DNA of 64,000 bases, from the NCBI RefSeq assembly GCF_054482525.1, contig NZ_CM137006.1, one strand, 5' to 3'. The position numbers were made by a program, and so were the translations under genes. Below, piece by piece: positions 15,136 to 48,452 of this stretch. Position 1 is the first letter of the stretch. The number at the start of each line of letters is the position of its first letter. Under the pieces are notes generated by a model. The model was not told the DNA's origin. It saw nothing but the letters and a program-made list of their open reading frames with translations, and made no database searches.

Positions 15136-15300
15136 AAAGAAAAAGGCAGCCTGTGGTTGCCTTTTGCCAATAATTCGCACACATTGCGGGTTACTGCTTT
15201 ATTTTCGTTCAGTGCTGATAACGAACATCAACCTGCAAAACGAAGCGCATAGTTTAAAATGGCTATCATCAATACGCTATATCTGATGGAAAAAAATATG
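15136..15300 (-). ncRNA. sraB: Candidate small RNA SraB (boundaries approximate)
   Basis: Intrinsic terminator (GGCAACC-ACA-GGCUGCC then UUUUUCUUU on minus strand, + coords about 15134..15161) sits about 36 nt upstream of yceD start; SraB reported in the yceF-yceD intergenic region (recalled); 5' end not determined. Confidence 0.4.
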
Positions 15301-15882
15301 CCTAAACTTATTTTAGCCTCCACCTCGCCCTGGCGTCGCGCTCTTCTGGAAAAACTGCAAATCTCTTTTGAATGTGCAGCACCCGAGGTCGACGAAACTC
15401 CACACAGCGACGAATCACCGCGACAGTTGGTGCTTCGACTGGCACAAGAAAAAGCGCAATCTCTGGCGTCACGTTATCCGGATCATTTAATTATTGGTTC
15501 AGACCAGGTATGTGTTCTTGATGGCGAAATCACCGGTAAACCGTTAACGGAAGAAAATGCCCGTCTGCAATTACGCAAAGCCAGCGGCAATATCGTCACC
15601 TTCTATACTGGACTGGCGTTGTTTAATTCGGCGAATGGGCATCTGCAAACAGAAGTGGAGCCTTTTGACGTCCATTTCCGTCACCTGAGCGAGGCGGAGA
15701 TTGATAATTACGTGCGTAAAGAGCATCCCCTGCACTGCGCGGGTAGCTTTAAGAGTGAAGGATTTGGCATTACGCTGTTTGAGCGTTTAGAGGGGCGTGA
15801 TCCTAACACGCTGGTTGGTTTACCGCTAATCGCGCTGTGTCAGATGTTACGTCGGGAAGGGAAAAACCCGCTGATGGGATAG
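15298..15882 (+). CDS. yceF: Maf-like nucleoside triphosphate pyrophosphatase
   Basis: ORF track 207 aa; start moved to [14 protein letters not shown] (194 aa). Confidence 0.88.
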
Positions 15883-15888
15883 TTGTTT

Positions 15889-15962
15889 GCGCCGGATGCG
15901 TTTACGTCGCATCCGGCAATCGGTGCTGGCGGCCTGATGCGGCGTAAACGCCTTATCAGGCC
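15889..15962. repeat. REP/BIME cluster (two palindromic units)
   Basis: GCGCCGGATGCG...CGCATCCGGC and GCCTGATGCGGCGTAAACGCCTTATCAGGCC read between convergent yceF and rluC. Confidence 0.7.
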
Positions 15963-15993
15963 AACCGTCCATTATCATGCTTATATGCTTGTA

Positions 15994-16953
15994 TTAGCGC
16001 GCGTTACGCAGCTTTTGCAAACAACGCTTCAAACCTTCATCCATCGGCGCTTCGATACGCATCACCTCACCGGTCCCCGGATGAGTAAACTTCAACGCTG
16101 CAGCGTGCAGGAACAGGCGATTTAATCCCGTGCCTGCTTCAGTGAGCTGTCTGTCAAATTCACGGTCACCGTAGCGATCGTCAAAGGCAATCGGATGACC
16201 CGCATACTGTGTATGCACACGGATCTGATGAGTACGCCCTGTTACCGGGCTACAACGCACCAGGGTGGCAAAAGCATAGCGTTCTTCCACTTTAAAGCGT
16301 GTTTCCGACGGTTTGCCTTCCTGACTGACACGCACGATACGCTCGCCGCTTTGCAGAATATTTTTCAATAACGGCGCTTGAACGCTCTTCACATGCGACT
16401 GCCACTGACCGCGCACCAGCGCCAGGTAATCTTTTTGCATCCCTTTTTCACGTAATTGCTCATGCAGAGAACGCAACGCCGAGCGTTTTTTCGCTACCAG
16501 CAACACACCTGAAGTGTCCCGGTCGAGACGATGAACCAGTTCAAGGAACCGCGCTTCCGGGCGCAACGCCCGCAAACCTTCGATAACGCCGAAGCTTAAA
16601 CCACTGCCGCCATGTACCGCCGTACCGGAAGGTTTATTCAGCACCAGGATATGGTCATCTTCATATAAGATGACGTCCGCCAGCGCCGCCACCTTTTGCA
16701 GATGTGGCGAAACCGCCTCTTCTTCCCGTTCAGCAACGCGAACCGGTGGGATACGCACCTCATCACCCGCTTCGAGTTTATATTCAGGCTTAATACGTTT
16801 TTTGTTCACCCGCACTTCGCCTTTACGCAAAATACGGTAAATCATACTTTTTGGTACGCCTTTCAATTGGGTACGCAAAAAGTTATCGATACGTTGCCCC
16901 GCTTCGTCAGCGGTGATAGCAACAATTTTTACGGATGGAGTCTCTGTTTTCAT
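15994..16953 (-). CDS. rluC: 23S rRNA pseudouridine synthase C
   Basis: ORF track 319 aa; S4 domain plus RluA-family catalytic region. Confidence 0.93.
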   Translation of the reverse strand: MKTETPSVKIVAITADEAGQRIDNFLRTQLKGVPKSMIYRILRKGEVRVNKKRIKPEYKLEAGDEVRIPPVRVAEREEEAVSPHLQKVAALADVILYEDDHILVLNKPSGTAVHGGSGLSFGVIEGLRALRPEARFLELVHRLDRDTSGVLLVAKKRSALRSLHEQLREKGMQKDYLALVRGQWQSHVKSVQAPLLKNILQSGERIVRVSQEGKPSETRFKVEERYAFATLVRCSPVTGRTHQIRVHTQYAGHPIAFDDRYGDREFDRQLTEAGTGLNRLFLHAAALKFTHPGTGEVMRIEAPMDEGLKRCLQKLRNAR

Positions 16954-17164: not shown

Positions 17165-17525
17165 GTTTCCGTGTCCATCCTTGTTAAAACAAGAAATTTT
17201 ACGGAATAACCCATTTTGCCCGACCGATCATCCACGCAGCAATGGCGTAAGACGTATTGATCTTTCAGGCAGTTAGCGGGCTGCGGGTTGCAGTCCTTAC
17301 CGGTAGATGGAAATATTTCTGGAGAGTAATACCCAGTCTGTTTCTTTGATAATTGCGCTGTTTTTCCGCATGAAAAACGGGCAACCGACACTCTGCGCCT
17401 CTTTGAGCTGACGATAACCGTGAGGTTGGCGACGCGACTAGACACGAGGCCATCGGTTCACACCCGGAAAGGCGTTACTTTGCCCGCAGCTTAGTCGTCA
17501 ATGTAAGAATAATGAGTAAGTTACG
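17165..17525 (+). promoter_or_regulatory. rne long structured 5' leader (RNase E autoregulation); 5' boundary approximate
   Basis: 572-bp non-coding gap upstream of rne; the roughly 360-nt autoregulatory leader is established knowledge; TSS not determined from sequence. Confidence 0.5.
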
Positions 17526-39143: not shown

Positions 39144-39248
39144 TCACGAGGGCGCATTCGCGCCCTTTATTTTTCGTGCAAAGGAAAACGTTTCCGCTTA
39201 TCCTTTGTGTCCGGCAAAAACATCCCTTCAGCCGGAGCATAGAGATTA

Positions 39249-43958: not shown

Positions 43959-43999
43959 GCGTGAAATGTTGCCGGATGGCACGCATCCGGCAATGATAT

Positions 44000-48344: not shown

Positions 48345-48442
48345 GCCAGATGTGGCGTGAACGCCTTATCCGACCTACAAAATCTTGCAAAATCAACACA
48401 TTGCAGGAGCGATGTAGGCCTGATAAGCGTAGCGCATCAGGC
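48345..48442. repeat. REP/BIME cluster (two REP units)
   Basis: GCCAGATGTGGCGTGAACGCCTTATCCGACCTAC and GTAGGCCTGATAAGCGTAGCGCATCAGGC read between yceK and opgH. Confidence 0.75.
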
Positions 48443-48452
48443 AACTACGTTT

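Follow-up and report, generated by a model that had tools for sequence, protein, structure and literature searches.

The two palindromes in the gap between yceF and rluC are, judged by sequence and position, REP101, a catalogued and already known repeat of E. coli K-12. In our best explanation, to which we give a probability of about 0.85, this REP101 BIME is a two-way 3'-end hairpin that acts as a leaky, Rho-backed terminator and as an exonuclease barrier, and it is probably an immobile relic.

The locus lies in a stretch of 64,000 nucleotides (the window), whose neighbourhood is that of the E. coli chromosome, plsX-rpmF-yceD-yceF / rluC / rne. We found yceF (+) and rluC (-) to be convergent with a gap of 111 bp, and both the stop codons and the RefSeq annotation under the match, from which the names are taken, confirm the flanks given in the original prediction. 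The gap of MG1655 is likewise 111 bp, and MG1655 coordinates were projected as window position = 15883 + (1146010 - MG1655 position). The published MG1655 list holds the entry REP101, 'Convergent', 1146003-1145929, yceF, rluC (supplement, bioRxiv 10.64898/2026.03.23.713779), and window positions 15890-15964 are identical to this repeat at 73 of 75 bases, with two SNPs. The RefSeq feature table of MG1655 has no REP entry at the yceF-rluC gap, which is uninformative because REP325 is missing from the same table too. The features of the locus are as follows.

15810-15843 (-): Rho-binding peak, projected from MG1655 1146050-1146083 (Supplementary Table 15)
15880-15882 (+): yceF stop codon TAG; the REP1 stem starts 8 nt downstream
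15890-15964: whole BIME, counterpart of MG1655 REP101 (1145929-1146003), placed by the naRNA4 match at 15890-15962 and the REP101 coordinates
15891-15917 (+): REP1, a y unit whose GTAG side faces yceF; stem of 10 bp without a mismatch, loop of 7 nt
15918-15930: 13-nt linker AATCGGTGCTGGC, homologous to the linker within the naRNA4 unit (AAcGGUGCCGACU)
15924-15967: overlap of the yceF and rluC transcript 3' ends, projected from MG1655 1145926-1145969 (Supplementary Table 16, entry 86)
15931-15962 (-): REP2, as long as a y unit but with the foot of a z unit (T:A pair)
15972-15980 (+): possible remnant of another REP tail; direct repeat, TTATCATGC here and TTATCAGGC in most strains, resembling CTTATCAGGC
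15994-15996 (-): stop codon of rluC; 31 nt lie between it and REP2

Hairpin structure and REP family

Both palindromic REP-like units of the original prediction are present where it had placed them, and their folding and motif content exceed chance. REP1 consists of the arms GCCGGATGCG (15891-15900) and CGCATCCGGC (15908-15917) around the loop TTTACGT; the GC at 15889-15890, which had been quoted as part of the unit, is unpaired. In the naRNA4 alignment, REP1 has a 3-nt deletion relative to the Y consensus (AAG of GGAUAAGGCG), and the stem bulge is gone. REP2 has its arms at 15931-15945 and 15948-15962, which read GGCCTGATGCGGCGT-AA-ACGCCTTATCAGGCC and are 87% complementary, and it keeps the AA/GC bulge (a GC/TT mismatch, typical of REPs). 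Neither unit carries GTAG: REP1 is preceded by TTTG(C) where GTAG is expected, and the tetranucleotide of REP2 on the - strand is GTTG (GGCCAACC on the + strand). Positions 15898-15917 and 15932-15951 form a 20-nt inverted repeat of 90% identity, with 14 nt as the spacing between its arms (15917 to 15932). Hence, REP1 and REP2 are inverted copies of each other.

On both strands, each unit folded by itself reaches -20.5 to -23.8 kcal/mol (z of -4.8 to -5.4), and 0 of 200 shuffles folded as well; the values for REP1 are -20.9 and -20.5 kcal/mol. For the whole gap, z is -3.2 (+ strand) and -4.9 (- strand). With the common T allele, which MG1655 has at 15899 (L001 1975-2005 aligned to window 15889-15919), the yceF-sense RNA has a G.U pair and folds at -19.3 kcal/mol, and the rluC-sense RNA has an A.C mismatch and folds at -15.5 kcal/mol. 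This allele hints, if weakly, that the constraint is on the yceF-sense hairpin.

The REP motifs are strongly enriched. GCCKGATGCG occurs seven times in the 64-kb window relative to 0.44 expected (about 16-fold over shuffles), with three of the seven copies in this element, and CTTATCMGGCC occurs twice relative to 0.05 expected (about 40-fold over shuffles), with one copy here. REP2 has exact copies of both motifs (GCCKGATGCG and CTTATCMGGC), and REP1 has the head motif on both arms. The GCCKGATGCG 10-mers at 6886 and 12398 have no partner arm and appear to be isolated matches rather than REPs.

The original prediction would have fallen had a formal search found no match to REP families. We found that Rfam naRNA4 (RF02564) matches 15890-15962 over its full length (model positions 1-77 of 77) with 57.5 bits and an E-value of 1.6e-7 for the full window. 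This score, from the + strand, is 2 bits under the gathering threshold of 59.5 bits, and the - strand scores 53.6 bits. naRNA4 is one 77-nt unit of REP325, in which a short linker joins a Y palindrome to a Z2 palindrome (PMC4550694). A weak Rfam match to the plant microRNA family MIR4359 (18.9 bits, E-value of 0.29) was rejected as a chance match to the palindrome.

E. coli REPs are imperfect palindromes of 30 to 40 nt with GTAG 5' of the foot and a two-base bulge, and a BIME consists of two inverted REPs and a linker; BIME-1 has a long linker that contains an IHF site, and BIME-2 a short one (PMC3333891, PMC8266576). REPs are extragenic, lie mostly at gene 3' ends and are present in many copies per genome. 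The element sits between two stop codons, as an extragenic repeat at 3' ends does, and the inverted repeat and the naRNA4 alignment give it the make-up of a BIME. Its linker reads AAUCGGUGCUGGCG in the alignment where the model has AAcGGUGCCGACU, and inspection of the 13 nt found no IHF consensus WATCAANNNNTTR, which rules out the BIME-1 subtype. BIME-2 combines y and z2 units across a short linker and is usually found as tandem copies with s/l/r motifs at the flanks. Here the homologous short linker and the y unit are seen, but there is a single copy only, and the z unit has y length. On account of its orientation, short linker and motifs, the element fits a single BIME-2-like unit with the GTAG sides outwards.

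Loss of the GTAG bears on mobility. The REP transposase of E. coli no longer bound or cleaved its target after any substitution in GTAG, and it needed the bulge too (PMC3333891, PMC8266576). Neither REP1 nor REP2 combines GTAG with a bulge, as a substrate of TnpA-REP (RAYT) would. Since GTAG is lost on both units and the bulge is lost in REP1, and since the transposase needs both, the pair is probably an immobile, decayed descendant of a mobile REP pair.

The window holds other repeats and RNA elements. A second BIME, of the canonical type 1, lies at 48346-48443: its y unit carries a CTAC tail, its 35-nt linker contains the IHF-like site AATCAACACATTG, and its z unit is short and keeps GTAG. 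In the same element, Rfam ES036 (CssrF) matches 48379-48421 above the gathering score. At 43971-43993 there is a short REP-like hairpin, TGCCGGATGGCACGCATCCGGCA, whose - strand carries the REP head motif. The Rfam search also gave, all above gathering, the SraB sRNA at 15136-15304 (-), which overlaps the yceF 5' end on the other strand, the RNase E 5' UTR element at 17165-17501 (+), the PyrC leader at 39199-39248 (+) and the ES056 sRNA at 59293-59384 (+).

Transcript ends and termination in the gap

The MG1655 element is one of 306 listed bidirectional terminators (bioRxiv 10.64898/2026.03.23.713779). In entry 86 of that list, the overlap of the two transcript 3' ends is centred on REP2, extends a few bases past it in both directions, and is reported for stationary phase only; its flanks hold just one A and two U (bioRxiv 10.64898/2026.03.23.713779). 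The MG1655 Rho peak is on the rluC strand, antisense to the yceF 3' end and 47 nt beyond REP101, and it is inside a bicyclomycin-sensitive (i.e. Rho-dependent) readthrough region at 1145912-1146487 (bioRxiv 10.64898/2026.03.23.713779). For the strain of the window, the transcript ends, the Rho site and the bicyclomycin-sensitive region are all projections from MG1655, whose gap differs by SNPs. The role as terminator or mRNA stabiliser that had been suggested from the sequence agrees with these published tables for REP101.

A promoter and terminator scan of the yceF-rluC gap returned no prediction. No T run follows the hairpins on either strand, which places the element outside the definition of an intrinsic terminator. 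Given that a U-tract is lacking, we infer a leaky hairpin that pauses or terminates the polymerase and forms a barrier to exonucleases, with Rho ending the transcripts that escape. The role of the element is thus most likely that of a two-way 3'-end hairpin, both an exonuclease barrier and a Rho-backed leaky terminator, and termination at the element is probably weak and Rho-assisted.

As we envisage it, both mRNAs would bear 3'-terminal hairpins, with REP1 and REP2 on the yceF mRNA and REP2 only on the rluC mRNA. These hairpins would pause or partly stop the polymerase and would block 3'-to-5' exonucleases. Transcripts that escape would be terminated by Rho further downstream and then trimmed back to the hairpin. 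As the outcome, each gene would be shielded from antisense transcription that reads through from its neighbour, and the 3' ends of the two mRNAs would be stabilised.

Published work on other REPs points in part the same way. REP325 has been found experimentally to cause partly Rho-dependent transcription attenuation and to stabilise the upstream mRNA, and convergent pairs with a REP between them have higher expression (bioRxiv 10.64898/2026.03.23.713779). However, genes bearing REPs show no general difference in mRNA half-life, and REP fragments of 2-4 hairpins were insensitive to bicyclomycin (bioRxiv 10.64898/2026.03.23.713779). That one 3'-end hairpin may serve both genes of a convergent pair is by now a textbook-level view, and the significance of the locus is mainly its correct annotation. 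Natural alleles without parts of the element may provide a small natural test case of REP function.

Variation in E. coli and turnover between species

We searched 5426 complete E. coli genomes with a 141-bp query and found matches in 5424; at least 80% of the query is covered in 5417 of the 5426. Hence, the element is near fixation in E. coli and is not a presence/absence polymorphism. The claim that it marks a strain-variable site holds in part: presence is nearly fixed in E. coli (at least 5417 of 5426 genomes), and the variation consists of SNPs, an 11-nt deletion and, rarely, an insertion of IS1397. Presence/absence and turnover at the yceF-rluC gap were seen only between species and genera.

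The gap is typically 95.7% identical among E. coli genomes relative to 98.4% for the flanks. The exact allele of the window is rare, with at least 99% identity over the 141-bp query in only three genomes. In an alignment of eight E. coli alleles, SNPs cluster in two places, the upper stem and loop of REP1 and the 31-nt stretch that separates REP2 from rluC. GTAG is missing from both units in all eight. The O157 strain 644-PT8 (L003) has an 11-nt deletion, corresponding to window 15958-15968, that takes out the 3' foot of REP2, so the full REP2 stem is dispensable. This sequence was drawn from the band of 90-95% identity, which comprises 487 genomes; with one sequence inspected, other genomes in the band probably carry the deletion too.

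Two genomes have IS1397 in the loop of REP2: O78 strain 3 (L002 3078-4515) and E. coli 042 (L090, about 2251-3684). The insertion sites, at about 15944-15949 of the window, are 2 nt apart and the target duplications differ (GTAA in O78 strain 3 and AAAC in 042), so the two insertions are independent. IS1397 reportedly has REPs as its specific insertion targets (PMC1525189). On that basis, the two insertions are separate evidence that REP2 is a true palindromic unit. In PCN033, the strain nearest to the window, seven other genomic places match the IS1397-end/REP query. The locus is an example of a decayed REP pair that is an implausible transposase substrate and yet stays fixed at a convergent gap, and IS1397 still recognises the relic.

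For comparison between species, we used 78 Enterobacteriaceae loci with both genes, of which 57 have a gap of 1-250 nt. Species-type palindromes with a GTAG/CTAC foot are found in 30 of these 57 short gaps (Salmonella, Citrobacter, Leclercia and others). Several others (L034, L054, L052 and L087) contain plain bidirectional terminators of the A-tract/hairpin/T-tract type, and Enterobacter has other repeats in the gap, several together with such an A-tract/hairpin/T-tract terminator. In 18 of the 78 loci the gap is longer, at 465-1505 nt, with additional sequence exceeding 250 nt (L027, L033, L035, L037, L039 and others, from Kosakonia, Phytobacter and Raoultella), and these gaps presumably hold an extra gene. 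Because other genera carry non-homologous REPs or plain bidirectional terminators in the short gaps, what recurs there is a strong hairpin and no particular sequence. Hence, the gap is also an example of one site that various enterobacteria occupy with non-homologous REPs or plain bidirectional terminators.

Closer to E. coli, E. albertii (L057 2586-2654) has one REP only, a perfect palindrome that has no bulge, keeps CTAC intact and aligns with REP2, relative to which it has a compensatory swap of T:A to A:T. It begins 8 nt past the yceF stop codon, as REP1 does in E. coli. A locus labelled E. coli SCPM-O-B-8794 (L010 2586-2692) is from a divergent Escherichia lineage, with nucleotide identities of 94.5% in yceF and 90% in rluC. 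Here, the inner 48 nt, i.e. loop 1, the inner arms, the linker and loop 2, are inverted: they match E. coli at 45 of 48 positions as the reverse complement and at 33 of 48 in the forward direction, and the linker matches at 13 of 14 as the reverse complement and at 5 of 14 forward. The outer right arm is altered too, giving perfect pairing with its new partner. Among the 5426 complete E. coli genomes, none matches this allele with at least 80% coverage.

Alternative readings and comparison with known systems

A different role for the element would be translation-coupled down-regulation of yceF, in which REP1 hinders ribosomes from reaching the stop codon and thereby causes stalling, mRNA cleavage and less YceF. 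This mechanism for REPs near stop codons reportedly stems from Liang, Rudd and Deutscher in 2015. The yceF stop codon ends at 15882 and the REP1 stem starts at 15891, and these 8 nt are inside the under-16-nt rule given in PMC12306157. The stretch from the stop codon to REP1 is free of indels in all eight aligned E. coli alleles, and the single REP of E. albertii lies at the same distance; against this, the stalling rule rests on few reporters, REP1 is atypical in having a shorter, perfect stem, and the distance of the hairpin from the stop codon differs widely in other genera. We lean against this reading while treating it as a tentative possibility, and it is plausible that stalling on yceF adds to the 3'-end role rather than replaces it. 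Its stronger form, in which REP1 throttles YceF, an m7GTP pyrophosphatase, in a translation-coupled way and rearrangements of the BIME in place retune yceF and rluC between lineages, seems to us rather unlikely. If it were true, the E. albertii single REP, the 48-nt inversion, the 11-nt deletion and the IS1397 insertions would all change the hairpin at the stop codon.

The element could also act as DNA, as a site of gyrase binding and cleavage (BIME-2 type), as a cruciform or as a nucleoid contact through HU and naRNA, relieving positive supercoils between the convergent genes. Its architecture is BIME-2-like, gyrase binds BIMEs with higher affinity for BIME-2 (PMC1475751), and condensation by HU and naRNA4 has been proposed (PMC4550694). 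We consider this improbable: there is one unit here and no tandem BIME-2 array, and the 2026 preprint, which puts the nucleoid role in dispute, reports no chromosome compaction by REP325/naRNA4 and no long-range REP-REP contacts (bioRxiv 10.64898/2026.03.23.713779). Still more doubtful is that the pair is an active mobile REPIN or BIME that the REP transposase continues to move and that has no host function. The family was spread by TnpA-REP (PMC3333891, PMC8266576), and both the turnover between species at the locus and the inversion of the inner 48 nt in the divergent Escherichia lineage could be taken as signs of movement, but both GTAG motifs are mutated and the REP1 bulge is missing, which the E. 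coli enzyme does not tolerate, and at least 5417 of 5426 genomes have the element at an unchanged place and of unchanged length. We give practically no credence to chance palindromes or to a plain intrinsic terminator unrelated to REPs. Hairpin terminators are frequent in convergent gaps and some genera have one exactly here; this reading is refuted, however, by the exact REP head and tail motifs, the full-length naRNA4 match and the published REP101 annotation, and the missing U-tract and the targeting by IS1397 stand against it as well. The two-way 3'-end hairpin of REP101 is the reading that we prefer.

Placed beside known systems, this REP101 hairpin pair shares with the bidirectional intrinsic terminators of convergent pairs the use of one palindromic hairpin for both strands, whereas it is flanked by neither an A-tract nor a U-tract. 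The BIME-1 type, e.g. at 48346-48443 of the window, also has two inverted REPs in an intergenic gap; in contrast to its 35-nt linker and retained GTAG/CTAC, the linker here is 13 nt without an IHF consensus. The naRNA4/BIME-2 unit of REP325 has a Y hairpin, a short linker and a Z hairpin in the identical order and orientation. REP325, however, is a tandem array of six units and there is one unit here; in addition, REP1 has lost its bulge through the 3-nt deletion, the upper stem of REP2 is of y length and not the longer z2, and GTAG/CTAC is absent. The closest counterpart is REP101 of MG1655 itself (EcoCyc/EcoGene annotation). Its two SNPs relative to the window are both in REP1, a T/G difference in the loop and, at 15899, a C in the window that pairs G-C where the T of MG1655 pairs G.U; the locus, the length, the two units and the linker are all alike.
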